Positions 1 to 53,062 of a DNA stretch of 64,000 nucleotides are shown piece by piece; the first letter of the stretch is position 1, and every line of letters starts with the position of its first letter. A program made the position numbers and the translations under genes. Origin of the DNA: a bacterium (GTDB lineage: Bacteria > Patescibacteriota > Minisyncoccia > UBA6257 > GWB1-50-10); assembly GCA_021815205.1 (NCBI GenBank), contig JAKAHD010000001.1:25247-89246 (forward strand). The letters are read 5' to 3'. The notes beneath the pieces are model-generated. The model had not been told where the DNA came from. It worked only from the letters and a program-made list of their open reading frames with translations, and ran no database searches.

Positions 1-34
1 TTAACGTTGGTTACCAAGGGAGTATGTGATATCA

Positions 35-68
35 CCCGGGGTGTTATGACGCGTCATAACACCCCGGG
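35..68. repeat. Palindrome family A copy 1 (core GGTGTTATGACGCGTCATAACACC, extended by CCCGG arms)
   Basis: Perfect 34-bp self-complementary sequence. The identical 24-bp core recurs at 627-650, 19216-19257 and 41445-41468. Confidence 0.9.
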
Positions 69-174
69 TAGGCAGCAATTTCCAGAATGAAAAGTGAAGA
101 TGGAGTATAATTATAAGAAATTATAAGAAAGGAGCACTATAAGCGCGGAAGAAATCGTAAGTGAACGCTACAAA

Positions 175-618
175 ATGAAGAAGGATATCAGAAAGAAAAA
201 GTTGCGTATACCCGCAATTTCCCATTATTCATCCCGCAAGGAATGGGAGCGGGCCGTATGGAAAATGATTGTAAGGTCTCCCGAAGCACTTGATGCGTTT
301 ACCGCTCCCTATGAGCGTCATTCCCTTGTGATGCGCGCCGCGGTAGTAGATAGGATTCATTCTGGAAGAAGTTATCGCGAGATCAGCAGAGAATTGTGGA
401 GTTCGCTCCAAACAATCGGCAGTATCAAGAGGGCGCTCGATGGGAAAAATTATCGAAGCTATCGGGAGCGGGGGAAGACGGAGCGGAAGAAAAGAGTATA
501 TTCCCAATCCTCCCATAGTACATCACGGCACGAACCGCAAAGGAGGACTACGCGAGTTACCGGTACCGTATCGCTGGGCGGTATCACAAGAACCCGCTAT
601 CCCGATAGACTGAAGTGA
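175..618 (+). CDS. TrpR-related YerC/YecD-family HTH DNA-binding protein
   Basis: The motif SYREISRELWSSLQTIGSIKRAL matches the YerC/YecD (Trp-repressor-like) HTH signature. The basic C-terminal tail is likely low complexity. The gene is flanked on both sides by family A palindromes. Confidence 0.55.
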   Translation: MKKDIRKKKLRIPAISHYSSRKEWERAVWKMIVRSPEALDAFTAPYERHSLVMRAAVVDRIHSGRSYREISRELWSSLQTIGSIKRALDGKNYRSYRERGKTERKKRVYSQSSHSTSRHEPQRRTTRVTGTVSLGGITRTRYPDRLK

Positions 619-626
619 ACACTACA

Positions 627-650
627 GGTGTTATGACGCGTCATAACACC
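627..650. repeat. Palindrome family A copy 2
   Basis: Exact 24-bp core GGTGTTATGACGCGTCATAACACC, immediately 3' of the YerC-like ORF. Confidence 0.9.
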
Positions 651-687
651 CCACCATACGCATGAAAGAGGAAAAGAAAGTTTGCCG

Positions 688-871
688 GAACTGTCTGCCT
701 GCGGCGGATAGCCACCTCTTCGAGGCATTTCCCTTAGGGATGGCAAAAGGAGATACGTATGTATGAATGTATGAATCAGAAACAAAGAACATATCAGAAC
801 TGTCTGCCTGCGGCGGATCTCTTTCCCTGCGGGATATCTCCCGTAGGGATGACCGAGGGAGACAAACATCT
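688..871 (+). repeat. Tandem duplicated ~111-bp leader unit (GAACTGTCTGCCTGCGGCGGA...CCxTAGGGATG...GGAGA...ATG), two copies
   Basis: A 21-nt exact repeat occurs at 688-708 and 799-819. Each is followed by a diverged but alignable hairpin-like segment and an SD-ATG. The second unit's ATG (872) is the probable true start of the downstream gene. Confidence 0.6.
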
Positions 872-2311
872 ATGAGTCAAGAGAGACGTATATGTCAAAA
901 TTGCAAATCCGAGTTCACAATTGAGCCCGACGATTTTGCGTTCTACGAGAAGATAAAGGTGCCGCCGCCCACGTGGTGTCCGGAGTGCAGGTTTAAACGG
1001 AGGGCAAGCACGATGAATGTCTATTCGCTGTATAAAAGAATGTGTGATGGATGTGGGAAGAAAGTTGTTTCCATTTATCACGAAGATCTGCCGTTTAAAA
1101 TCTATTGTTCTTCCTGTTGGTGGGGAGATTCGTGGGACGGTACAGAGTATGGCCAAGAGTATGATCCGAACAAGTCTTTTTTTGAACAAGTTCTCGAGTT
1201 AAGGAATAGAACGCCGTTCATGGCTCTTGAAACACAGGCGACTACCCATGTCAATACAGAATATACTAATTACTCCAGTAATAATAAGGATTCCTATCTT
1301 ACGTACTTTGCGGATTATTTAGATAATTGCATATATGTCTCTTTCGCGAAGAACGTGAAAGATTCCGCTGATTGTTTACGAATAAGCGACTCCGAAGAAT
1401 GTTATGGATCAGTGGGCGTCCTTAAATGTTATCGTACGTATTTTTCGGAAGAGTGTGATAATTGCGTTAACGTTTATTTTTCGAAAAACTGCTCAGGTTG
1501 TTCTGATTGTTTCGGATGCGTTAATCTCCGAAAGAAATCAAATTGCATATTCAACAAACACTACACAAAGGAAGAATATCAAAAGCGTTTGGCGGAGCTG
1601 CGCATCGGATCTTTCAGAGCAATGGAGAAATATCAGAAAGAAATTCCTTCATTTTGGAGAAAATACCCAAGCAAATTTTATCACGGAAACGCCTTGAATA
1701 TGAATGTGTCCGGAGATTACATCTCTCAGTCGAAAAATACCAGAAATGCATATCTTGTGACTCATGTAGAGGATTCGCGCTTTGTTCAGATGCTTTCGGT
1801 GCCAAAGACAAGGGACTCCTACGATTATACGGGATGGGGCGCGAACAGCGAACTTCTTTACGAGTGTCAGAGTGTCGGAGAAAATGCTTCGAGGGTCAAG
1901 TTTTCACTCCATTGTTATCCAAACGTTACAGATTGCGAATATTCATATTATGCAGTAAGCTCGAAAAACGTTTTTGGGTGTGTCAACTTGAAGAAGAAGG
2001 AGTATTGCATATTAAACAAACAATACACGAAAGAGGAATTCGATGAACTTAAAGCGAGAATTATAGAGGATATGAATAAAAGACCTTTCATCGATTCCCT
2101 TGGAAGGATTTGGAGCTATGGAGAATTCTTTCCGCCTATATTATCCCCCTTCGGCTATAACGAGACTTTAGCAATGGATTATTTTCCTATGGCAGAAGAT
2201 AGGGTAGTGGATGAGGGATTTGCGTGGAAAGAGAAGGAGAGTCAATATACCGCGACCATAAACGGATCTGTCTTCCCGATGACGTACAGGCGTCAAGGGT
2301 GGATGTCGTAG
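872..2311 (+). CDS. Cysteine-rich repeat (beta-solenoid-like Cys ladder) protein with N-terminal tandem zinc-ribbon motifs; function unknown
   Basis: The N-terminus has C-x2-C...CPECR twice. The central region has repeating ~9-11-aa units ending in Cys (EECYGSVGVLKCYRTYFSEECDNCVNVYFSKNCSGCSDCFGCVNLRKKSNC), and the motif GCVNL+KK.xC(I)(F/L)NK.YTKEE(Y/F) occurs twice. The ORF track extends the start to 767 through the repeat leader; an SD-like GAGGGA lies 13 nt before ATG 872. Confidence 0.55.
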   Translation: MSQERRICQNCKSEFTIEPDDFAFYEKIKVPPPTWCPECRFKRRASTMNVYSLYKRMCDGCGKKVVSIYHEDLPFKIYCSSCWWGDSWDGTEYGQEYDPNKSFFEQVLELRNRTPFMALETQATTHVNTEYTNYSSNNKDSYLTYFADYLDNCIYVSFAKNVKDSADCLRISDSEECYGSVGVLKCYRTYFSEECDNCVNVYFSKNCSGCSDCFGCVNLRKKSNCIFNKHYTKEEYQKRLAELRIGSFRAMEKYQKEIPSFWRKYPSKFYHGNALNMNVSGDYISQSKNTRNAYLVTHVEDSRFVQMLSVPKTRDSYDYTGWGANSELLYECQSVGENASRVKFSLHCYPNVTDCEYSYYAVSSKNVFGCVNLKKKEYCILNKQYTKEEFDELKARIIEDMNKRPFIDSLGRIWSYGEFFPPILSPFGYNETLAMDYFPMAEDRVVDEGFAWKEKESQYTATINGSVFPMTYRRQGWMS

Positions 2312-2637
2312 ATGAGATTATTGAATGTGTGAAATGCGGGAAATCATTTCGGATTGTAAAATCGGAATGGGAACTTTTAAAAAAATTGAATCTCCCCTTG
2401 CCTCGCACATGTCCGGAATGTCGGAGGATGGACCGCTGTATTCGAATCAATCCTCCGAAGATCTATCACCGCGCCTGCCAGTGCATGGGAGAAGAGTCAC
2501 TCGATGGCGTTTATATGAACACAGGAGAACATCATCACGGAAAAGGGAGGTGCCCGAACGAATTTGAGACCTCCTACGCCCCCGACCGTCCCGAGATTGT
2601 GTACTGCGAATCCTGCTACCAATCGGAGGTCGTATAA
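2224..2637 (+). CDS. Small zinc-ribbon / His-rich protein; possibly the frameshifted C-terminal part of the preceding gene
   Basis: ECVKCGKSFRIVKSEWELLKKLNLPLPRTCPECRR repeats the zinc-ribbon motif found at the N-terminus of the 872-2311 product. The ORF overlaps that gene by 88 nt in another frame. The true start is uncertain. Confidence 0.35.
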   Translation: MEREGESIYRDHKRICLPDDVQASRVDVVDEIIECVKCGKSFRIVKSEWELLKKLNLPLPRTCPECRRMDRCIRINPPKIYHRACQCMGEESLDGVYMNTGEHHHGKGRCPNEFETSYAPDRPEIVYCESCYQSEVV

Positions 2638-2639
2638 CA

Positions 2640-2664
2640 GGTGCTATGCTATAGCATAGCGGCC
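2640..2664. repeat. Palindrome family B copy 1 (GGTGCTATGCTATAGCATAGC, right arm imperfect)
   Basis: Matches the 24-bp palindrome GGTGCTATGCTATAGCATAGCACC found at 19363-19392, 56113-56136 and 56322-56357. Confidence 0.7.
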
Positions 2665-2934
2665 AAAAAAAGAAACAACCTCAAAGGTCTTCACCGTGTC
2701 ATTCTGATCCACTCCGCTAGCTGGAGGACGACAGAGAAGAATCTAAAAGCACCCAGCTCATCATTCATAAGTAGAGAGATCCTTCTCCTCCTGCGGCGGA
2801 TCAGGATGACGAAATTGGTGTTTTGAGATGGGTTCTAAAAAAGATATTCATTCAATCACCGCTATGCCCTCTCTGTGATCCGTGAGAATCCGTGTTCTTA
2901 TCTGTGATATCTATGTGATGGTATAATACCTCCA

Positions 2935-3675
2935 ATGACCAGGGGCGCGAAAAAATTCGTATATGGACTTCTTTATCTTTGTCTCTTTGCGCTTCTTGGA
3001 TACTGGATATTCGGAGGATTGTTCAGGAGCGTCCCCGCCAATCCCTCGACATGTACGGATTGCCCGCCTCAAAATCAGATCGCGCCCATTTCGCTCGTGG
3101 GAGCCGTGCGATTTTGGAAGAGCGGCGACATGGCGCATGTGACGCTCTTGGGGCAGATAAAAAACCCGAATGCCGATTACGGCGTTTCAAAACTGCCGTA
3201 TACGTTCACGTTGTACGACAAGAACGGTGCTGTCGTAGGAACGGTGCAGGGTGCGGAGTCGGTATTTCCGGGAACAACGAAGTATGTGTTCGGGATATAT
3301 GACGGAAGCGCCTACGATGTGGGAAGAACCGCGCGCGCGGACCTCGCGTTTTCGAATCCTCAATGGGTTGCCGCCGGGCAGTTTATCGCTCCGAATATCG
3401 CGGTAACCGCCGGTCCCGCGACCACCGTTTCGCAACACGGGATCGAGGTGACGGGCTCCGTGCGGAATACGAGTCCGCTCACCTCGGGAACCATCAAAGT
3501 GATCGCATTGCTCGGAAATAAGTACGGAGACCCGATCGCGGCGGGGCAGACCCTTCTCGGCGGACTTCGGAGCCTCGACCGCGCATCCTTCTCGATATTT
3601 TTCCCCGCCGATGCCTCACTCACCGCGAACGCCAACCCCTCGTTTACGAGGGTGTTTGTGAGCGTGGAGGAATAA
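2935..3675 (+). CDS. Hypothetical membrane-anchored protein (N-terminal TM helix, extracytoplasmic beta-rich domain)
   Basis: A 246-aa ORF with a hydrophobic N-terminus (LLYLCLFALLGYWIFGGLF) and a GGTATAAT-like -10 box just upstream. No recognisable family. Confidence 0.5.
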   Translation: MTRGAKKFVYGLLYLCLFALLGYWIFGGLFRSVPANPSTCTDCPPQNQIAPISLVGAVRFWKSGDMAHVTLLGQIKNPNADYGVSKLPYTFTLYDKNGAVVGTVQGAESVFPGTTKYVFGIYDGSAYDVGRTARADLAFSNPQWVAAGQFIAPNIAVTAGPATTVSQHGIEVTGSVRNTSPLTSGTIKVIALLGNKYGDPIAAGQTLLGGLRSLDRASFSIFFPADASLTANANPSFTRVFVSVEE

Positions 3676-16536: not shown

Positions 16537-16959
16537 ATGGCGAAACCAATTAAGGCAATGTTAAAACTGCAGATCAAGGCGGGAGAAGCGAATCCCGCGC
16601 CGCCGATCGGCCCCGCGTTGGGGCAGCACGGCGTGAATATCCAGCAGTTCTGTCAGCAATTTAATGAAGCAACGAAGGAGATGCGCGGCGACGTGATTCC
16701 CGCGGAGATCACCATCTATGAAGACAGGACGTTTGAATTTAAACTCAAGACTCCGCCCGCCTCGGCGCTCATCAAAAAAGCTGCGGGTATAGAAAAAGGA
16801 GCCGCGGAGTCCGGAAAGAAGACGGTGGGAAAGATCTCAAGGGCTGATTTGAGAAGTATCGCGGAGAAGAAGATGGTGGACCTGAACGCGACGGACATTG
16901 AAGCGGCGGAAAGAATCATTTCCGGCACGGCGAAAAACATGGGTATTGAGATTGAATAG
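16537..16959 (+). CDS. rplK: 50S ribosomal protein uL11
   Basis: Classic uL11 N-terminus ([26 protein letters not shown]). No rplA follows. Confidence 0.95.
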
Positions 16960-17145
16960 TCTCAATACCCATGTTTTAACCCTTACATCAAGGGCGATAG
17001 ATTTCTGATTGTATTCGAGAAAACCATCTCGCAGGCCGAGCGGGCATGGTTTCCGCCGAAGGCGGAAGAGCGAGGCCGAGAGTGAGCGCGCATTCCTCGC
17101 TGGGGAATGCAATAGCGTGTTTTCGAGAATATAATTCAAGAAATC

Positions 17146-18230: not shown

Positions 18231-19175
18231 TTAGGATTTTGTCTTAATAAATTGCTCGACTTTCTGAATCGCCTCGGTATTGGTGTTAACCCAAATGATG
18301 CGGAAATCCCTTTTGAACCACGTCATCTGCCGCTTGGCGTAGCGGCATATTTCCTTCGCGAGTGTTTCTTCGAACGCTTCCCGTGTGATCTTCCCTTGGA
18401 GGAATTGGGCGCCGTACCGGTACTCGAGTCCGAGATCGTCCATACGTTTCCATGAAACACCTTCCTCATGGAGCCGGGTGATCTCCTCGATCATTCCGTG
18501 CCGGAGGCGTTTGTGAAGCCGTATCCTGATACGTCGTTCGAGTTCCTGTGGGTCTTTTCTGATTCCGAGGAAGAGTATGTCCGCGTCGAGCGGACAGAGG
18601 GAAAGTTCAGGCACTTTCCCGAGCGCCTCGGCGATCTCGAGCGCTCGGATAAGGCGACGCGGATTCTTAGGATCGATCGTCTTGGCTCGCGCAGGATCCT
18701 TTTTTTTCAAATACGAGAACAGTTCTTGAGCGGATACCTTCCCGAGTCGTGCGCGCAGCGCCCGATCTGGTCTTACTTCCGGGAAGACGATGCCATCCAC
18801 CGCGGCGCGGATATAAAGTCCCGTCCCGCCGCACACAACAGGCACCTTATTCTCTTTCCATATGCGCGCGATTTCTTTTCGCGCGAGTTTCTGATAGTGT
18901 GCGACGGTAAATATCCTCTTTGGATCCGCGATATCAAGAAGATGGTGCGGTACCCCCTTCATTTCGCGTTTTGTAATTTTCCCCGTGCCGATATTCATGC
19001 CCTTGTATACCTGCCTCGAATCGGCGGAGATAATCTCGGCGCCCTCTGCACCGAACCGCTTTTGCGCTCGCGCGGAGTTAAAAAGACGCGCCACCTCGAC
19101 CGCGAGTTCGGACTTCCCGCTCGCGGTGGGACCCGCGATTATGATGAGTGGGCGTACCGTATCCTTCCTCTCCAT
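18231..19175 (-). CDS. miaA: tRNA dimethylallyltransferase
   Basis: P-loop (IIAGPTASGKSELA) and MiaA conserved blocks. Confidence 0.93.
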   Translation of the reverse strand: MERKDTVRPLIIIAGPTASGKSELAVEVARLFNSARAQKRFGAEGAEIISADSRQVYKGMNIGTGKITKREMKGVPHHLLDIADPKRIFTVAHYQKLARKEIARIWKENKVPVVCGGTGLYIRAAVDGIVFPEVRPDRALRARLGKVSAQELFSYLKKKDPARAKTIDPKNPRRLIRALEIAEALGKVPELSLCPLDADILFLGIRKDPQELERRIRIRLHKRLRHGMIEEITRLHEEGVSWKRMDDLGLEYRYGAQFLQGKITREAFEETLAKEICRYAKRQMTWFKRDFRIIWVNTNTEAIQKVEQFIKTKS

Positions 19176-19215
19176 AGTGATAGCTATAGTATACGGCGAT
19201 CTTTCCTCACGCGCA

Positions 19216-19257
19216 TCTCCCGAGAGTGTTATGACGCGTCATAACACCCTCGGGAGA
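19216..19257. repeat. Palindrome family A copy 3 (extended 42-bp palindrome)
   Basis: TCTCCCGAGAGTGTTATGACGCGTCATAACACCCTCGGGAGA lies between thrS and miaA. Confidence 0.9.
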
Positions 19258-19362
19258 CGCCCGACAATGGACAACGGTGGAGATAGAACTTTCATGGAGG
19301 AAAGAAAATGAAAAGGAGCTTGGCATAAAAACATGCTAAGCTCTTATATTTTCTATAGCGCC

Positions 19363-19392
19363 GAGGGTGCTATGCTATAGCATAGCACCCTC
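19363..19392. repeat. Palindrome family B copy 2 (GAGGGTGCTATGCTATAGCATAGCACCCTC)
   Basis: Perfect 30-bp palindrome, 110 bp from family A copy 3. Confidence 0.9.
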
Positions 19393-19445: not shown

Positions 19446-21233
19446 TTATTTCCGTTCTGTAATCTCTTTTGTAATTTTCTCGATGAATTTCTCAAGCGGA
19501 ATCGTTTCGGTTTCTTTCACGTGCCGCGTGCGGATAGTCACGGTTTTCGCGGTTTCTTCTTTCTCTCCTACGACGATCGTGTAGGGGATTTTCCGGAGTT
19601 CCGTTTCGCGGATCCGTTTTCCGAGCGTTTCGTTCGCACCCCCAAGTTCGGTGCGGATACCGTGTTGCGTAAGCCCCTCATTTACTTTCTCGGCATAGGC
19701 ACTGAACTTGTCACTCACAGGAAGGATGGTTACTTGCGTCGGTGCGAGCCAGACAGGGAAATCGCCCGCGTAGTGCTCGATCAAGACGGAGAGAAAACGC
19801 TCGATGGAGCCCATGATCGCCGCATGGATCATCACGATCCGTTCCGGCTCCCCTTCTTCGTTCGTGCAGGTGAGATCGAAGCGCTCCGGCATGTTCATGT
19901 CGAGCTGGATCGTCGCGACCTGCCACTCGCGCCTCAAGGAATCCTTCCCTATAAAATCTATTTTCGGACCGTAAAATGCCGCTTCGCCTTTTGCCTCGGT
20001 TGCGGTCGCGTGCCGCTCCTTTACGAGCGCGCGGAGTTCGTTTTCTGCCGCTTTCCAGGTTTTGGGATTTCCAAGATACTTCTCCATATGTTTCGGATCA
20101 GAGAGCGATAAACGTACCCCGAGATCGAATCCGAATGCGCCGTAGAATGTTTCGATGATGCGCCATATTTTTGCCATCTCTTCCCTAATTTGGGATTTCC
20201 TACAGAAGACGTGAGCATCATCCTGGGTGATGGATCGGACGCGCGAGAGGCCGGCAAGCTCTCCCGATTGTTCATCGCGGTATACTTTTGTGGTATTTGC
20301 ATAACGCTGAGGAAGTTCGCGGTAGCTCCATGATCGGCGGGCGTAGATCTGCGTGTGATGAGGGCAGTTCATCGGTTTTATCGCAAAAAAATGTCCTTCG
20401 CGCGTCCTCACCTTGAAGAGATCATCCTTGAATTTCTCCCAGTGTCCGCTTTTCTCGTACAGTTCTTTTTTAGTGAGGTGCGGTATGTCGACCTGGCTAT
20501 ACCCCGCCGCCCTGCGGAGACCCCACACGTAATCGTCAAGAAGGTTCCGGAGCAGTGTTCCCTTCGGAGTCCATAGGGGGAGCCCCGCCCCCACAAGTTC
20601 GGAGAAGGTGAAGAGATCGAGTTCGGGTCCCAATTTTTTATGATCGCGCCGCTTCGCCTCTTCCTGAAACGCGAGATAGTCGTCGAGTTCTTCTTTTGTT
20701 TTAAATGCAAGCCCGTAGATGCGCGTGAGCATCGGATTCTTCTCGTCGCCGCGCCAGTAGGCGCCCGCGATATGGGAGAGCTTGAACGCGTCGGGATTGA
20801 TCTCCGAGGTGTTTCTCACATGCCCTCCCTTGCATAAGTCTACGAATGCCGCTGATTGCCGCTGATTTTTAGCTGATGACCGCTGACCCTCTTTTCCGGT
20901 AATGTAGATAGTAAGCGGTTTTTTCTCTTTCTGAAATTCTTTAATGAGATCAAGTTTGAAGGGCTGGTCTCCAAAAAGTTTTTTCGCGGCAAGGGGAGTG
21001 ATTTTTTTACCTGAAAAGGGGAGCTTTTTGCCAACGAGTCCCCGCATGGTTTTCTCGAACTCCCGCAAGTCCTCGTCCGTGATGGGGCGGGGGAGCTTGA
21101 AGTCGTAGTAGAACCCGTGTTCGATTACGGGCCCGATCCCGAGCTTCGCCTTCGGAAATTTCTTCAGTACCGCCGCGGCCAAGAGGTGCGCCAAGGAGTG
21201 ACGGATGCCGTCCACGGAATCGTGTGTTTTCAT
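19446..21233 (-). CDS. thrS: Threonine--tRNA ligase (no N-terminal TGS domain)
   Basis: Class II aaRS core plus the ThrRS editing/second additional domain (HSLAHLLAAAV). 595 aa. Confidence 0.95.
   Translation of the reverse strand: MKTHDSVDGIRHSLAHLLAAAVLKKFPKAKLGIGPVIEHGFYYDFKLPRPITDEDLREFEKTMRGLVGKKLPFSGKKITPLAAKKLFGDQPFKLDLIKEFQKEKKPLTIYITGKEGQRSSAKNQRQSAAFVDLCKGGHVRNTSEINPDAFKLSHIAGAYWRGDEKNPMLTRIYGLAFKTKEELDDYLAFQEEAKRRDHKKLGPELDLFTFSELVGAGLPLWTPKGTLLRNLLDDYVWGLRRAAGYSQVDIPHLTKKELYEKSGHWEKFKDDLFKVRTREGHFFAIKPMNCPHHTQIYARRSWSYRELPQRYANTTKVYRDEQSGELAGLSRVRSITQDDAHVFCRKSQIREEMAKIWRIIETFYGAFGFDLGVRLSLSDPKHMEKYLGNPKTWKAAENELRALVKERHATATEAKGEAAFYGPKIDFIGKDSLRREWQVATIQLDMNMPERFDLTCTNEEGEPERIVMIHAAIMGSIERFLSVLIEHYAGDFPVWLAPTQVTILPVSDKFSAYAEKVNEGLTQHGIRTELGGANETLGKRIRETELRKIPYTIVVGEKEETAKTVTIRTRHVKETETIPLEKFIEKITKEITERK
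20849..20888. repeat. Tandem CGCTGAT motif array (CCGCTGATTGCCGCTGATTTTTAGCTGATGACCGCTGAC)
   Basis: Four iterations of (C)GCTGA(T/C). The same hexamer arrays recur at 36466-36490, 55419-55440, 56063-56097, 59470-59490 and 61485-61568. Confidence 0.6.
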
Positions 21234-23136: not shown

Positions 23137-23263
23137 TCCCGTGAGAAGCAGAAAACCCCGGGCGTGCCACGGGGATGAACCCCACACTCATTTAGTGTGG
23201 GGGTGAATGCCTTGTCCCGTGGCGAACGCGGGGTTTACTACTCCGTGTGAGCTTCTCACGGGA
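23137..23263. mobile_element. MITE-like repeat family D copy 2
   Basis: Same 13-bp TIRs and core as 18053-18177, with a few substitutions. Confidence 0.85.
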
Positions 23264-27379: not shown

Positions 27380-27511
27380 TCCCGTGAGAAGCAAGAAACC
27401 CCGTGGCGTGCCACAGAGATGAACCCCCACACTCATTTCGTGTGGGGGGGGTGAATGCCTCGTCCCGCGGCGAACGCGGGGTTTCCTACCCCCATGTGAG
27501 CTTCTCACGGG
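27380..27511. mobile_element. MITE-like repeat family D copy 3
   Basis: Same TIRs and core as copies 1 and 2. Followed by a 44-bp imperfect palindrome ATTACTAACTTGTGTGACGATCGTCACATAAGTTAGTAAT (27521-27566). Confidence 0.85.
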
Positions 27512-27585
27512 ATTTATTTTACATTACTAACTTGTGTGACGATCGTCACATAAGTTAGTAATGTAGTAATAGAGAAAACGAGTAT

Positions 27586-33052: not shown

Positions 33053-34273
33053 ATGGAGTTCGGGTTTTGGGGAAAATTGAAGAAGCCGATATTCGCGCTT
33101 GCGCCGATGGCGAACGTGACGGATGCCGCATTCAGATATATTATCGCGAAGTACGGGAAGTTCACACGCCCCGACGGAACCGTGGGAGGCGGGCCCGATG
33201 TGATGTGGACCGAATTCGTGTCGTGCGACGGGCTCTGTTCCGAGGGAAGGGAAGCGCTACTTCAGGATCTGCGGTTCGACGCATCGGAACGGCCTATCGT
33301 TGCTCAATTTTTTGGTGCGGTGCCGGAGCATTTTTACGAGTGCGCGAAGCTTGCCGTGGAACTCGGATTCGACGGCATTGATATTAATATGGGATGCCCC
33401 GATAAGAATGTGCTGAAGCAGGGGGCGGGCGCTGCGTGTATCGATGCGCCGGAGCGCGCGAAAGAGATCATACGTGCGACACAAGAAGGTGCGGGAGTAC
33501 TTCCTGTGTCTGTAAAAACAAGAATAGGGACGAAGCGCAACACGCTTGCCGCGTGGCTGCCGTTGCTTCTCGCGCAGGATCTTGCCGCGATCACGATACA
33601 TGCGCGGACTGCAAAGGAGCTTTCCCTCGTGCCGGCGCACTGGGAGATTTTTCATGATGCGGTTCGGATACGGAACGAAGTACAGAGCGGAAGCGCGAAA
33701 AAGACGTTGCTTTTGGGAAACGGGGATGTGGAAAGTATCGAAGATGCTGCAAAGAAGGCCGAGGAGTACGGATTGGATGGCGTGATGATAGGGAGGGGAA
33801 TTTTCGGCAATCCTTGGTTTTTTAGAGATGCCGATATGTTTCGTACCGCGGGTTTAGCATACCGAGAAAAGTCTGCGCTCCAGGGCGCCTGCCTGCCCAA
33901 GCAGGCTAGCCCAAGCCCCCACACCTATTTCGTAGGTGTGGGGGCAAGTTTTCCCCACTCTTCTCAGCATACTAAGCCCGCTCCCCATAAATTTCGGGAA
34001 GAGGAGGGATTGCATAAAGAGAGTGATGGTGTTGGAGCGGATGAAAAGCTCCGGGTGATGGTGGAACACACGTTCCTTTTCGAGGAGATGTTCCGCGGAA
34101 AGAAAAGTTTTGATGTGATGAAGAAGCATTACAAGGCGTATGTGAACGGATTTAAAGGGGCAAAAGAGTTGCGCATCAGGTTGATGGATACGAAGAACGC
34201 GCAGGAGGTCGCGGACATCGTGGAAAATGTCCACGCATGGCACACTCACCGCTCGGGCGCTCCGGGGCGCTAG
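33053..34273 (+). CDS. dus: tRNA-dihydrouridine synthase with a ~60-aa repeat-derived in-frame insertion and a repeat-derived C-terminus
   Basis: The Dus TIM-barrel has LAPMANVTDAAFR, PIVAQFFG and GIDINMGCP. The ORF-track start at 32723 is a spurious extension; ATG 33053 precedes MEFGFWGKLKKPIF. Confidence 0.85.
   Translation: MEFGFWGKLKKPIFALAPMANVTDAAFRYIIAKYGKFTRPDGTVGGGPDVMWTEFVSCDGLCSEGREALLQDLRFDASERPIVAQFFGAVPEHFYECAKLAVELGFDGIDINMGCPDKNVLKQGAGAACIDAPERAKEIIRATQEGAGVLPVSVKTRIGTKRNTLAAWLPLLLAQDLAAITIHARTAKELSLVPAHWEIFHDAVRIRNEVQSGSAKKTLLLGNGDVESIEDAAKKAEEYGLDGVMIGRGIFGNPWFFRDADMFRTAGLAYREKSALQGACLPKQASPSPHTYFVGVGASFPHSSQHTKPAPHKFREEEGLHKESDGVGADEKLRVMVEHTFLFEEMFRGKKSFDVMKKHYKAYVNGFKGAKELRIRLMDTKNAQEVADIVENVHAWHTHRSGAPGR
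33860..34020. mobile_element. Intragenic repeat module inside dus (CTGCCCAAGCAGGCTAGCCCAAGCC plus hairpin CCCCCACACCTATTTCGTAGGTGTGGGGG)
   Basis: Low-complexity P/S/H-rich peptide (LAYREKSALQGACLPKQASPSPHTYFVGVGASFPHSSQHTKPAPHKFREEEG...) interrupts the Dus fold between the barrel and the helical domain. Its DNA shares the GCTAGCCCAAG and CCCACAC..ATTTCGT..GTGTGGG modules with families E and D. Confidence 0.6.
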
Positions 34274-40789: not shown

Positions 40790-41428
40790 ATGATCTCTTC
40801 ATTGCTCACATCCCTCGCTTCCTTTGTGAGCGCGGCGATAAGCACGCTCGGCTATCCCGGTATTGCGGTGCTTATGGCGCTCGAATCCGCCGCGACGCCT
40901 CTCCCCTCGGAGCTTATCATGCCGTTCGCCGGCTACCTCGTTTCGACGGGGAGGTTCTCCCTCTTTGGCGTTTCGCTCGCGGGGGCCCTGGGTTCGACAT
41001 TGGGCTCGATTATTGTGTATATGATCGCGCGCTACGGCGGGCGCCCGCTCGTTGAAAAATATGGCAAGCGCATATTCATTTCTCCTGCGCATCTTGAGGC
41101 GGCGGAGATCTTTTTCAAAACACACGGCGTGTCCGCGCTCTTCTTGGGGAGAATAATTCCGGTGGTGCGCACCTATATTTCGATCCCCGCAGGCATCGCG
41201 CAAGCCCCCCTCGGGATATTTACGCTTACATGTTTCGTCGGTTCGTTCCTGTGGTCGCTTCTTCTCGCGTGGGTCGGGCAGATCTTCGGGAACGGGTGGC
41301 ATATCATTACCCCCTACGCGCAGATCATAAACTACTGTATCGGCATCGCGCTCTTCTTTTTAGTGGCGTATTGGTTTTTGAAACGCGTCCTTTCCAGAAG
41401 AGATAACAAGAGAGACCGAGAAGACTAA
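40790..41428 (+). CDS. DedA family membrane protein (second copy)
   Basis: GYPGIAVLMALESAATPLPSELIMPFAGYL...RYGGRPLVEKYGKR canonical DedA block. Confidence 0.85.
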   Translation: MISSLLTSLASFVSAAISTLGYPGIAVLMALESAATPLPSELIMPFAGYLVSTGRFSLFGVSLAGALGSTLGSIIVYMIARYGGRPLVEKYGKRIFISPAHLEAAEIFFKTHGVSALFLGRIIPVVRTYISIPAGIAQAPLGIFTLTCFVGSFLWSLLLAWVGQIFGNGWHIITPYAQIINYCIGIALFFLVAYWFLKRVLSRRDNKRDRED

Positions 41429-41444
41429 AACGTCTCTCCTACGG

Positions 41445-41468
41445 GGTGTTATGACGCGTCATAACACC
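41445..41468. repeat. Palindrome family A copy 4
   Basis: Exact GGTGTTATGACGCGTCATAACACC about 90 nt upstream of the zwf-gnd fusion start. Confidence 0.9.
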
Positions 41469-41557
41469 CTCGATCCCATTCGCCTACCCCCATACCAGAG
41501 CGTACACTCGTGATGTGGGGGGTTTACTTCGGGAGGCGTTCGGTGGATACTAGAGGA

Positions 41558-44044
41558 ATGTATTTATCGAACGAGCAGAACTTCTCCTCTCGAATACCCA
41601 CGATCGTAGTCGTGATGGGTGCGACGGGCGATCTGATGACGAAGAAGATTACCCCCGCGCTTTTCGGTCTGTTCCGGAAAGGCGCGCTTCCCGCCATGTT
41701 TCGCGTCGTGGGATTCGCGCGCCGCGATCTCACGCACAACGAGTTTCAAGAGCGCGGCAGGGAGATTCTCGAGAACTATTACCCGCGTGAAGCGCATACG
41801 AAAGCCGCCCGGGATTTTCTCGGCCGCTATTTCTACGAGCGAGGTATGTTCGAGAGGAAAAAGGACTACGAGCGGCTGAAGCGCGCGCTCGGGAAGATCG
41901 ACGACGAGTGGGGAATGTGCTCGAATAAGATTTTTTATCTTGCGGTGCCTCCGCGGCGGTATCCCGAGATTGCGAACCATCTCGCGGCAACGGGACTTTC
42001 GAAGCCGTGCGGAGGCCCCGACGAGGGGTGGACCCGCGTCATCGTGGAGAAGCCGTTCGGAAGCGATGAAAAAAGCGCAAAGGCGCTGGACGCGCTCCTC
42101 GGAAAACTCTTCCGCGAGGAGCAGATCTACCGTATTGATCACTATCTCGCGAAAGAGATGCTCCAAAATATCCTCACGTTCCGCTTCGCAAACAATCTTT
42201 TTGAGACGAACTGGGGAGGCAATCTCATTGAGCGCATGCATATAAAACTTCTCGAATCGATCGGCGTGGAGGATCGTGGGGGATTTTACGATGGGGTTGG
42301 TGCGCTCCGCGACGTAGGGCAGAACCACCTGCTCCAGATGCTCGCGCTTGTGACGATGGAACGCCCCGAGACATTCTCCGCTTCCGCCATCCGCGCGGCG
42401 CGCGCAAGAATTCTCGAGACGCTCGAGATTCCTTCCGCGAAAGACGTGCGCAACAATACATTCCGCGCGCAGTATGAAGGATATCGCGCGATTAAGGGCG
42501 TTGCTTCCAATTCGAATACGGAGACCTACTTCAAGGTGCGGGCGCGGCTCCGCGCGCCGCGATGGAGGGGAGTGCCGATCACAATGGAATCGGGAAAACG
42601 TATGGGAAAGCCGTTGAAGGAGATCGAGATCGTATTCCGCCATCCCAGCCCATGCCTTTGTCCCGAAGGAGAGACGCATTATGCAAACTCCCTCGTCATA
42701 CATCTCGAACCAAAAGAAGGAATCACGATCCGTTTTTGGTCCAAGAAGCCGGGACATACCATGGAACTCGAGAGACGGACGTTCGATTTTGCATTCAGAG
42801 AGAAGGATGCCCATTCCCAGTACACCGAGGAGTATGAAAAGCTCCTTCTCGATTGCATCGCAGACGACCAGACACTTTTTGTGTCAAGCGAGGAAATCAA
42901 GGCGATGTGGAACTTTATTGATCCGATCGTCGCGGGATGGGAGAAAGGTGCGGTGCCGCTTGTGCGCTATGTTCCCGGGAGTGCCGACATCTCGGAGCAC
43001 GCCGAGGAAGCGATCCGAAGCCGCGAAACGTCCGGAAGGATCACGACGCGAGAGATTGGCGTGGTGGGACTCGGGAAAATGGGATCAGGGATCGCGCTCC
43101 AGCTCGTCGAGAAGGGATGGAAGATACACGCATGGAACAGAACCCCCGAGGTTACGCGGCGGCTCGCACGCGAGGGACTTCACGGCGTATATTCGATCAA
43201 GGAACTTGTCGCCGCGCTTCCCGCGCCGCGCGTGGTATGGCTCATGGTTCCTTCCTTCGCTAAAGCTGCGAATGGCAAGCCCGAGGAAAAGCCGGTTGAT
43301 GAGATGCTCTTCGGGAAAGAAGGGCTCGCGCGTTTTTTGAAACAAGGAGACATCGTAGTGGATGGCGGCAATTCCTTTTTTGAGGATTCCGTGCGGCGTG
43401 CGGCGCGCCTCAAAAAGCTCGGTATCCGATTCGTGGACGCGGGGGTTTCGGGAGGCCCTTGGGGCGCGCGACACGGCGCGTCCATTATGGTGGGAGGAGA
43501 GAAAAAAGATTTTGAGTATCTCAAACCGCTTCTCGAAAACCTTTCGGTGCGGGGTGGGTACGGGTACATGGGAAAATCGGGCGCCGGGCACTTTGTAAAA
43601 ATGGTGCACAACGGCATCGAATACGGCATGATGCAGTCCTTGGCGGAAGGGTTCTCGGTGATCAAGAAATCGAAGCTCGTTTCTGATCTCCGCGAAGTTG
43701 CGCGAGTATACGGAAATGGAAGTGTGATCACCTCGCGGCTCGTGGACTGGCTCCAGGGCGGGCTTGCACAGTACGGAACATCGTTGCGGGGGGTATCCGG
43801 CTCCGTGGCGCATACGGGAGAAGGAGAATGGACCGTGAAGACGGCAAAGAAACTCAAGGTGCAAACCCCCGTTATAAAGGACGCATTCGACTTCAGAGTG
43901 CGTTCGGCCGCACACCCGAGTTATACGGGTCAGATCCTTTCGATGCTCCGGAATCAGTTCGGCGGCCACTCGCTCATTTCAGAATCAGGAAAGAAGAAGA
44001 AAAGGAAACGATCGGGCAATCGCGCCCGCGGAACGCGGCTGTAA
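41558..44044 (+). CDS. zwf: Fused glucose-6-phosphate dehydrogenase (N, ~485 aa) and 6-phosphogluconate dehydrogenase, short decarboxylating Gnd/YqeC-like (C, ~330 aa)
   Basis: G6PD motifs GATGDLMTKK and RIDHYLAKE. After a ~20-aa linker come the 6PGDH Rossmann VGLGKMGSG and the GMMQSLAEGF / GAGHFVKMVHNGIEYG blocks. The reading frame is uninterrupted for 844 codons. Confidence 0.85.
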   Translation: MYLSNEQNFSSRIPTIVVVMGATGDLMTKKITPALFGLFRKGALPAMFRVVGFARRDLTHNEFQERGREILENYYPREAHTKAARDFLGRYFYERGMFERKKDYERLKRALGKIDDEWGMCSNKIFYLAVPPRRYPEIANHLAATGLSKPCGGPDEGWTRVIVEKPFGSDEKSAKALDALLGKLFREEQIYRIDHYLAKEMLQNILTFRFANNLFETNWGGNLIERMHIKLLESIGVEDRGGFYDGVGALRDVGQNHLLQMLALVTMERPETFSASAIRAARARILETLEIPSAKDVRNNTFRAQYEGYRAIKGVASNSNTETYFKVRARLRAPRWRGVPITMESGKRMGKPLKEIEIVFRHPSPCLCPEGETHYANSLVIHLEPKEGITIRFWSKKPGHTMELERRTFDFAFREKDAHSQYTEEYEKLLLDCIADDQTLFVSSEEIKAMWNFIDPIVAGWEKGAVPLVRYVPGSADISEHAEEAIRSRETSGRITTREIGVVGLGKMGSGIALQLVEKGWKIHAWNRTPEVTRRLAREGLHGVYSIKELVAALPAPRVVWLMVPSFAKAANGKPEEKPVDEMLFGKEGLARFLKQGDIVVDGGNSFFEDSVRRAARLKKLGIRFVDAGVSGGPWGARHGASIMVGGEKKDFEYLKPLLENLSVRGGYGYMGKSGAGHFVKMVHNGIEYGMMQSLAEGFSVIKKSKLVSDLREVARVYGNGSVITSRLVDWLQGGLAQYGTSLRGVSGSVAHTGEGEWTVKTAKKLKVQTPVIKDAFDFRVRSAAHPSYTGQILSMLRNQFGGHSLISESGKKKKRKRSGNRARGTRL

Positions 44045-53014: not shown

Positions 53015-53062
53015 CTATCGAAGTTCAACTTCACTATTTCTAGTGAAGTTGAACTTCGATAG
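53015..53062. terminator. Bidirectional terminator hairpin (22-bp perfect stem CTATCGAAGTTCAACTTCACTA / TAGTGAAGTTGAACTTCGATAG)
   Basis: Between convergent genes (52344-53006 plus; dnaX minus), followed by a T-rich tract. Confidence 0.7.

Follow-up and report, generated by a model that had tools for sequence, protein, structure and literature searches.

Why should the gene of a small regulator be bracketed on both sides by what looks like its own perfect operator? The question is raised by the left end of the 64-kb stretch of Patescibacteria DNA analyzed here (the window), where a gene for a TrpR/YerC(HisR)-like helix-turn-helix (HTH) protein, P0001 (175-618, plus strand), lies between two copies of one palindrome, F1. 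It leads to a second question, namely why further palindromes stand at gene ends or, in one lineage, inside genes. Much of bacterial diversity belongs to the Candidate Phyla Radiation (CPR), whose genomes, about 1 Mb in size, encode few recognizable regulators, and to our knowledge almost nothing is known about how this group controls transcription. Our literature search found no paper on this palindrome sequence, on CPR palindromes or on CPR TrpR-like regulators, and the palindrome-gene-palindrome unit, which recurs across the whole CPR group, appears to be undescribed. From the sequence comparisons below, we consider it probable, if far from certain, that F1 is the cognate site of P0001 and that this protein would be an autoregulated repressor of the TrpR/HisR type.

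F1 (GGTGTTATGACGCGTCATAACACC) is a perfect palindrome of 24 bp. Exact copies are found at 40-63, 627-650 and 41445-41468, and a further copy at 19225-19248 has one mismatch (first base A). An initial annotation of this DNA had placed F1 on both sides of the HTH gene as well as at the miaA and zwf-gnd loci, and we recovered all of these copies in the gene contexts it gave (thrS/miaA, zwf-gnd fusion). The longer spans it reported, 35-68 and 19216-19257, are real locus-specific extensions that reach 34-69 and 19210-19263. Its sister palindrome, F2 (GGTGCTATGCTATAGCATAGCACC), is present in exact form at 19366-19389, 56113-56136 and 56318-56341, the last having been given as 56322, and with two mismatches at 2640-2663. 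In 100 dinucleotide-preserving shuffles of the window, neither F1 nor F2 was matched. All nine palindrome copies of the window are intergenic, with a density of about one per 7 kb. The copy upstream of the HTH gene (core 40-63) is extended by ACCCGG/CCGGGT into a perfect palindrome of 36 bp (34-69); it lies 127 nt past the stop of a TIM gene, seen on a metagenome record (L101) that extends the window, and its center is 123 nt before the HTH-gene ATG. The downstream copy (627-650) starts 8 nt past the HTH-gene stop and has no flanking extension.

P0001 (147 aa, recognition helix SLQTIGSIKRAL) is, by its sequence, a distant TrpR/YerC(HisR)-like HTH protein from a Patescibacteria-specific branch, and not a YerC/HisR equivalog. 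It matches the Trp_repressor family of Pfam (PF01371) with an E-value of 1.7e-5 and 25.2 bits, below the gathering score of 27, and most of its homologs carry a precomputed PF01371 match. With the NCBIfam equivalog model for YerC/YecD (TIGR02531, cut-off 42.2), P0001 scores 14.5 bits and five family members 13-16 bits. In the PDB, a family profile built from 38 sequences finds the YerC-like protein 3kor of S. aureus (E 3.8e-5), then 3g1c (0.009), 3frw (0.02) and E. coli TrpR (approximately 0.02-0.04). The AlphaFold2 model of P0001 has six helices, a helical core at residues 11-106 and a predicted local distance difference test score of 71 overall, above 85 for most of residues 11-90. A Foldseek search of the PDB with this model gives E. 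coli TrpR as the top five matches, followed by YerC-like 3frw and 3g1c; the scores are weak (E 0.5-4, template modeling score 0.3-0.4), which is to be expected when the monomer of an intertwined dimer is compared. Two family-conserved extensions are absent from canonical YerC, an N-terminal YSSRKEWExACW segment and a basic C-terminal tail (YRSYRERGKTERKK...RGRPVRTKYG). An exhaustive profile search returned 327 clusters at 50% identity (E <=0.001), and the family is therefore a distinct, modest-sized branch. The exact P0001 protein is present on public metagenome contigs, and its named relatives are from Jorgensenbacteria, Paceibacterota and Brennerbacteria. We detected no homolog of the family among the viral contigs of IMG/VR, and a phage or virus origin was rejected. 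Nor did we recognize a catalytic domain: there is no Y1_Tnp match in Pfam or NCBIfam and no HUH motif in the family alignment, and the N-termini of IS630 and IS481 proteins show only HTH-level similarity (E 0.001-0.06).

The arrangement seen in the window is the rule in this family. We scanned species-representative genomes with the loose pattern GGTGYTATG-N6-CATARCACC, and about half of the 100 loci among the matches listed belong to Saccharibacteria, Paceibacteria, Colwell-, Jorgensen-, Wolfe-, Zambryski- and Gracilibacteria. Almost all of these CPR loci have a central hexamer that is a palindrome in its own right (CTATAG, ACGCGT, ACATGT or ATTAAT), and eight of the CPR loci among the matches listed also have a homolog of the HTH gene. 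The non-CPR loci, about half of the 100 listed, look like chance terminators with non-palindromic centers and T-runs, and were set aside. A scan of metagenomes with the family profile added 79 loci. Perfect palindromes of at least 16 bp number 198 in 500 kb of CPR loci, compared to 8 in shuffled sequence, and about 160 of the 198 are of the class YTATG-N6-CATAR, which we define as the palindrome class of the family. We compared 76 distinct members of the family, taken from genomes and metagenomes. A class palindrome stands on either side of 56 of these genes, on the upstream side alone of 8 and on the downstream side alone of 10, and 2 lack it altogether, several of the incomplete cases sitting at contig ends; a palindrome is thus upstream of 64 of the 76. 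The two palindromes of the 56 bracketed genes share the 5-nt arm in 54 cases and the 16-mer core in 42. Their centers are a median of 481.5 bp apart (range 427-587, the window having the largest distance), and the median distance from the stop to the downstream center is 22 nt.

Several paralogs, about 60% identical to each other within a genome, can be encoded together: P0002 and P0004 are 32 kb apart on one contig, Ga0075895_13 has two copies, and L155 has two within 3 kb. In genomes that are 78-89% identical the unit keeps its synteny, and its gene contexts and orientations vary. At two other loci (L071, 627-664; L061, 4960-4997), palindromes of two families abut, for example GGTGCTATGACATGTCATAGCACC followed at once by ATGCTATAGCATAG..., which suggests composite sites for two paralogs.

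When the genes are sorted by their flanking palindrome, the residue that precedes an invariant Gln-Thr in the second HTH helix tracks the palindrome arm. Proline goes with CTATG in 43 of 44 genes, leucine with [T/A]T[A/G]TG in 13 of 13, arginine with GTATG in 3 of 3, and serine with CT[T/G]TG in 10 of 11. A neighbor-joining tree computed without the specificity columns requires at least 24 changes of the residue and at least 25 of the arm, and only 28 of their combined state; residue and arm changes therefore fall on the same branches, and the association was reached in 0 of 5000 permutations. A second helix position is Gly with the center CTATAG and Ser with ACRYGT or ATGCAT (reached in 5 of 5000 permutations), a link that would explain why the center is palindromic. 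From the alignment with 3kor, together with what we take to be general features of TrpR, we infer that the first position begins the recognition helix and that the second is in its middle.

P0001 has a leucine at the first position (SLQT), which predicts a TTATG arm and therefore F1. Its close relative P0002 (65% identical) has a proline, so that this pair contains a specificity switch inside one clade, P0001 having F1 on both sides. That every gene is flanked solely by its own palindrome family is true for 54 of the 56 bracketed genes, but P0002 has F2 (CTATG) upstream, on the promoter side, and F1 directly downstream, past its stop. Following P0002, the F2 copies of the window should belong to a Pro-type paralog outside the 64 kb; a blastx search with 114 family proteins found no second paralog within it.

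The position of the upstream palindrome points to a function in transcription. In most members an extended -10 box (TGGTATAAT) comes directly past this palindrome, and strong -10 hexamers start 15-18 nt from its center on the gene side in 28 cases, with 5.2 expected; for most of the family this distance is 16-17 nt. The ATG is usually about 7 nt past the -10, which implies leaderless mRNAs. The palindrome then spans approximately -40 to -17, with its left-central ATGAC(A/G) at the -35 position. A repressor in competition with RNA polymerase would sit here, and repression is predicted. A distant member, L186, has the same geometry with another palindrome (CGTTACAC-CGTG-GTGTAACG). At three loci (L109, ~1382; L121, ~3915; L143, ~3903) the upstream palindrome has a -10 box at this distance to its left as well as to its right, so that one palindrome would serve two divergent promoters. 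The gene of the window is an outlier, its box past the palindrome having decayed to GGTAGGCA. The promoter-like sequence TGGAGTATAAT (101-111, plus strand), with a perfect -10 TATAAT at 106-111, probably serves as the HTH-gene promoter of this lineage. A tandem duplication of ATTATAAGAA (two copies, 108-129) occupies the leader and begins inside this TATAAT box.

A model of binding and autoregulation can be drawn from these features. Each half-site, GGTG-TTATG-ACG, would be read by one recognition helix of a small dimeric HTH protein; the residue before Gln-Thr may read bases 1 and 3 of the 5-nt arm, and the Ser/Gly position further along the helix would follow the bases at either end of the central hexamer. 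The upstream copy would, in most members, cover the -35 and spacer of an extended -10 promoter that gives a leaderless mRNA, so that occupancy should shut off the gene. The downstream copy may act as a second binding site that could form a loop with the first or keep transcription from crossing the boundary of the unit. In the lineage of the window the promoter seems to have shifted about 40 nt further from the site, which makes the output less clear there. F1 at 627 (Cys-rich gene), 19225 (miaA) and 41445 (zwf-gnd) would be further sites of P0001, and the F2 copies would belong to a paralog, encoded in another part of the genome, whose specificity residue is Pro. The regulator-operator pairing proposed in the initial annotation is thus supported by the conservation of the unit (56 of 76), the covariation of residue and arm, the promoter overlap in most members and the operator layout of HisR/YerC. 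Three solo sites that hold their positions between genomes of ~70-75% DNA identity also count in its favor.

Several of our observations speak against this reading. The family lies below the curated cut-offs, that of Pfam for P0001 and that of TIGR02531. In the window, the sole good -10 (106-111) starts about 54 nt from the palindrome center and the ATG is 123 nt from it, distances at which the geometry of autorepression is lost. The other palindromes have no -10 at a fixed distance, with 4 cases observed and 4.3 expected for solo copies (n=97) and 2 versus 2.2 for downstream copies (n=67). Copies are also present in convergent spacers: 49 intergenic copies in CPR loci divide into 37 tandem, 9 convergent and 3 divergent, for a length background of 68%, 15% and 17%, respectively. 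Of 65 genes that lie past the downstream copy 28 are convergent, which indicates that this copy belongs to the unit and not to the promoter of a neighbor. Taken together, the missing fixed-distance -10 and the convergent copies mean that a classical promoter-operator regulon does not explain most copies. In addition, 30 of 79 copies (38%, where 1.6% are expected) have locus-specific complementarity of at least 3 bp abutting the core, with total arm lengths of up to 19 bp, and in the orthologous pair L136/L144 the outer stem keeps its pairing through two double substitutions as the center decays; such pairing of a locus-specific outer stem is not needed by a dimeric operator. Finally, on one Colwellbacteria contig 8 of 13 copies are inside long open reading frames (ORFs), in the only open frame, GVMI[ND]HNT.

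Solo palindromes as promoters or promoter-overlapping operators are ruled out by the absent -10. Of the regulon suggested initially, the pairing of F1 with the regulator's own gene is supported. An extension to solo and downstream copies is not shown by these data, since no promoter stands at a set distance from them and some lie in convergent spacers. The pattern that the initial annotation had set against a regulator, palindromes at convergent 3' ends lacking promoter association, is found in part, and for solo copies only. The solo copies may serve a regulon, act as insulators or hairpins, or reflect a REP-like spread.

The stem extensions could mean that the palindromes function independently of any protein, as transcript-end hairpins (terminators or 3' stabilizers) or as cruciforms that punctuate transcription units, the association with the HTH gene being secondary. 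The predicted RNA hairpins are indeed very stable (-13 to -44 kcal/mol, z -4.8 to -8.6), they start 0-10 nt past stop codons, and the convergent-spacer copies and the compensated stem of L136/L144 fit as well. Within the window the folds reach -30.2 kcal/mol (z -7.1) for the upstream F1 (34-69), -31.1 kcal/mol (z -7.8) for F2 at 56310-56349 and -44.3 kcal/mol (z -8.6) for the F1 near miaA. Yet there is no T-tract enrichment past the hairpins, with a mean of 3.3 T per 8 nt against a background of 3.0 (193 sites), which rejects canonical Rho-independent terminators, and such terminators exist elsewhere in the genome, for instance at ~56505-56550, downstream of three palindromes. The central hexamer is palindromic in most copies, which a loop does not need, and the upstream copy precedes the gene's own promoter in most members. 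Moreover, structure alone cannot explain an arm that covaries with a recognition-helix residue. A search of Rfam 15 gave only two tRNAs above the gathering score in the window, and a permissive scan of 1-3000 gave one chance match to a miRNA hairpin (E 0.96) and no known RNA family. Internal mismatches among the copies are too few for a comparison of G·U and A·C mismatches, which would separate selection on RNA from selection on DNA. We consider hairpins of this kind, with no part for the protein, a quite improbable explanation.

The in-gene copies and the uneven distribution of solo copies bear on another explanation, in which the palindromes are dispersed elements propagated by themselves or by the host in the manner of repetitive extragenic palindromic (REP) sequences, the HTH gene is their vertically inherited partner, and any regulation of neighbors is incidental. 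Such elements are compatible with sequence-specific binding by the HTH protein. The cognate palindrome stands on either side of the gene, different paralogs have different palindrome families, and copies within a genome are identical over 24 bp. Copies are extragenic (at least 68% intergenic, versus 12% of sequence, in most genomes), usually nearer the stop of the upstream gene, also found in convergent spacers, and, when solo, lack promoter linkage; the unit itself varies in context and orientation. The F1 near miaA is absent from the orthologous spacer of L002, and in-gene copies of Colwellbacteria are within insertions of 18 and 15 aa relative to solved IscS and CCA-adding enzymes. Such spread would nevertheless have to occur with no recognizable catalytic domain (no Y1/HUH match), from paralogs that are old (~60% identity) and a unit that is syntenic at 78-89% identity, and with no IMG/VR homolog. 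The arm sequence is common to CPR classes, unlike species-specific REPs, and several solo copies are positionally conserved: the thrS-proximal F2, the copy at 1665 of L101 and a copy before a Cys-rich gene keep their positions between genomes of ~70-75% DNA identity, the first having in L002 a CTACAG center and a different extension. We looked for a clean presence/absence indel of the 24 bp (8 codons) in an in-gene copy and could not demonstrate one, the IscS-like loop being hypervariable in length among 60 CPR homologs. We regard this REP-like origin as possible but rather unlikely.

The initial annotation had also raised a palindrome-bounded cassette. The copies inside genes of one lineage leave such a cassette or mobile reading possible. 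The unit does not match an insertion sequence or miniature inverted-repeat transposable element (MITE): its only ORF is that of the ~135-aa HTH protein, the paralogs are ~60% identical and the unit is syntenic between related genomes.

Dozens of near-identical sites per genome, found at the density given above in the window, not tied to promoters and tolerated inside genes in one lineage, would also suit a chromosome-organizing protein in the manner of ParB/parS, Noc, SlmA or MatP. The HTH protein would then bind tens of dispersed palindromes and so structure or mark the chromosome, with no control of single promoters. The conserved basic C-terminal tail, often with RGRP, and the proximity of the gene to its own sites, as for parB/parS, agree with this. 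A strong intergenic bias, several paralogs of distinct specificity in one genome and a repressor-type promoter overlap at the own gene do not, and we think such a role very improbable.

A last, speculative idea combines elements of the above: paralogous TrpR-like proteins could mark gene boundaries in CPR, each binding its own palindrome family, which would act as a roadblock on DNA and a hairpin in the transcript and in this way insulate or terminate the transcription units of such small genomes, and the palindromes would spread and be kept symmetric, as in REP systems, by copying that depends on the cognate protein and requires no transposase. Such a system would account for the bracketing, for stem extensions with compensatory changes, for the missing promoter linkage and for the in-gene copies; even so, we hold it to be unlikely. 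A cognate site of an autoregulated TrpR/HisR-type repressor is the reading of F1 that we keep.

Beyond the HTH unit, the window has two palindromes between miaA (18231-19175, minus strand) and thrS (19446-21233, minus strand). The solo F1 (core 19225-19248) has a locus-specific stem extension, CTCCCGAG/CTCGGGAG, giving 27-nt arms with 89% complementarity over 19210-19263; it sits 49 nt upstream of the miaA start, and a -10-like TATACT hexamer starts about 43 nt from its center. The solo F2 (core 19366-19389) has a 3-bp extension (19363-19392) and lies 56 nt past the thrS stop. A further F1 (41444-41469) is 16 nt past the stop of a VTT/DedA gene, which ends at 41428, and 41-91 nt before the start of the zwf-gnd fusion, with a -10-like hexamer starting ~40 nt from its center. 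The fusion (ORF 41510-44044, likely ATG at 41560) comprises the N- and C-terminal domains of glucose-6-phosphate dehydrogenase followed by 6-phosphogluconate dehydrogenase domains.

The spacer at 56074-56555 contains three palindromes. The first is a solo F2 (56112-56137), 39 nt past the stop of a methylpurine-DNA glycosylase gene. The second (GGTACTATGCGGCCACATAGTACC, 56251-56274) is a variant whose arms are CTATG, whose outer frame differs and whose center is not palindromic. The third, an F2 (core 56318-56341), is extended by TAGATGAA/TTCATCTA to a perfect 40-bp palindrome (56310-56349) in a spacer of convergent genes. The spacer ends in a canonical plus-strand terminator (hairpin and T-run, ~56505-56550), and a small ORF of 47 aa (GTG at 56173, to 56316), with AGGAG 8 nt upstream, is bracketed by the palindromes at 56113 and 56318. 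Because of this terminator and ORF, an unannotated transcript may run through 56074-56555. The stretch 56113-56341 was rejected as a decayed HTH unit, since blastx of the window with the 114 family proteins matched only 175-618.

The window also has other symmetric sequences. An unrelated hairpin family with CCCC(C)ACAC stems and true loops of 5-7 nt (CCCCACACTCATTTAGTGTGGGG and relatives) is found at 23180-23202, 27424-27448 and 33915-33945. There is a 46-bp near-perfect palindrome at 27520-27565 (TACATTACTAACTTGTGTGACGA and its complement), a hairpin with perfect 22-bp arms between convergent genes at 53015-53062, and an inverted repeat with 18-bp arms at 16934-16977 that overlaps the end of the ORF at 16537-16959. 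In two other loci (L035, 3680-3730; L101, 1040-1800), a conserved tRNA gene, probably tRNA-Tyr (CTGTAAA anticodon-loop region), precedes the F2 copy of conserved position, and the stem extension of the L035 palindrome (GGGATTCGAACAAT/ATTGTTCGAATCCC) resembles the T-arm sequence of the tRNA (GGTTCGAATCCC).

The sole recurrent neighbor of the HTH gene is a Cys-rich CxxC protein family of ~590 aa, found in 16 of 77 loci and mostly directly downstream on the same strand; the listing of recurrent neighbors also includes EF-G-like genes and no his or trp genes. In the window, sites adjoin miaA, thrS, zwf-gnd, the DedA-like gene and the DNA glycosylase, and control of genes for histidine biosynthesis or uptake, as by HisR, is not found. 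The Cys-rich genes often form tandem arrays in CPR loci and have no informative Pfam match, and in seven cases a palindrome center is 16-23 nt before their ATG. Among candidate targets of the regulators, the Cys-rich family is the strongest. Its gene in the window (767-2637, plus strand; conserved start MSQERRICQNCK at ~869) is frameshifted between ~2245 and 2332 compared to the intact gene of L103 (15009-16787, a single ORF of 592 aa), and it is split into two frames in the independent record L101 as well; the frame change may point to a pseudogene or to programmed frameshifting, or may be an error of sequencing. An F2-like palindrome with two mismatches (GGTGCTATGCTATAGCATAGCGGC, 2640-2663) starts 2 nt past the stop of this reading frame. 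Between the downstream F1 and the conserved start, a 21-nt direct repeat, AACTGTCTGCCTGCGGCGGAT, occurs as two exact copies 109 nt apart (689-709, 798-818); among the other loci compared it was detected only in copies of the window contig, and it may not belong to the system. At L026 (5530-6594), on a contig labeled Saccharibacteria, an ORF for a reverse transcriptase with IGNLTSQ and YMDD, resembling those of diversity-generating retroelements, is directly upstream of a unit.

These results offer a family of 327 clusters (at 50% identity) with its predicted DNA sites, a rule from residue to base (Pro to C, Leu to T or A, Arg to G, Ser to CT[T/G]TG) and a conserved promoter architecture of extended -10 and leaderless mRNA, which together make binding sites predictable from sequence in CPR genomes. 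They also bear on the old problem of how REP-like palindromes originate and persist.

Other palindromes share single features with this system. Rickettsia palindromic elements are 100-150 bp long and lie in-frame inside protein genes as insertions in tolerant loops, and we know of no cognate DNA-binding gene flanked by them. The Colwellbacteria palindromes are likewise in-frame inside genes, but the CPR core is 24 bp and in-gene copies were seen in one lineage only. The CIRCE element (controlling inverted repeat of chaperone expression) is an inverted repeat conserved over very distant lineages, the operator of the dedicated repressor HrcA, and is thought to act as an mRNA hairpin as well. It differs in being confined to heat-shock operon promoters, in its 9-nt non-palindromic spacer and in that it does not bracket hrcA.

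REP sequences and their REP-associated tyrosine transposases (RAYTs) are short dispersed palindromic repeats with a partner gene flanked by cognate repeats (general features as in PMC3116915 and PMC3337134). The CPR repeats, too, are short and scattered mostly outside genes, different repeat families go with different paralogs of one genome, and the partner gene is vertically inherited and flanked on both sides by cognate repeats. This partner is, however, a TrpR-like HTH protein and not a HUH/Y1 transposase of the IS200/IS605 type, which is the defining feature of REP/RAYT systems. Further, the CPR repeats are perfect palindromes without the GTAG/CGTC tag, REPIN doublets are not seen as a rule, copies number tens and not hundreds, and the arm is conserved across whole CPR classes.

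Also among the closest known systems is that of YerC of B. subtilis, which is HisR, a TrpR-family repressor whose operators are 20-bp palindromes, cacTTTA-N6-TAAAgtg, often located before hisR itself, with autoregulation in about half of genomes (PMC9413887). The CPR protein differs from HisR and TrpR by its extra N-terminal segment and basic C-terminal tail, and by scores under the curated cut-offs. The CPR family has several paralogs per genome, each with its own site variant, and no his or trp genes recur as neighbors; its sites are on both sides of the gene and are perfect, identical and often extended palindromes, many of them away from promoters. What is shared is a small all-helical HTH protein with profile matches to 3kor, 3g1c, 3frw and TrpR and a fold search topped, at weak scores, by TrpR, a palindrome of about 20 bp built as arm-N6-arm (cacTATG-N6-CATAgtg and gcTTTG-N6-CAAAgc in CPR), and a site before the regulator's own gene, which suggests autoregulation in both.

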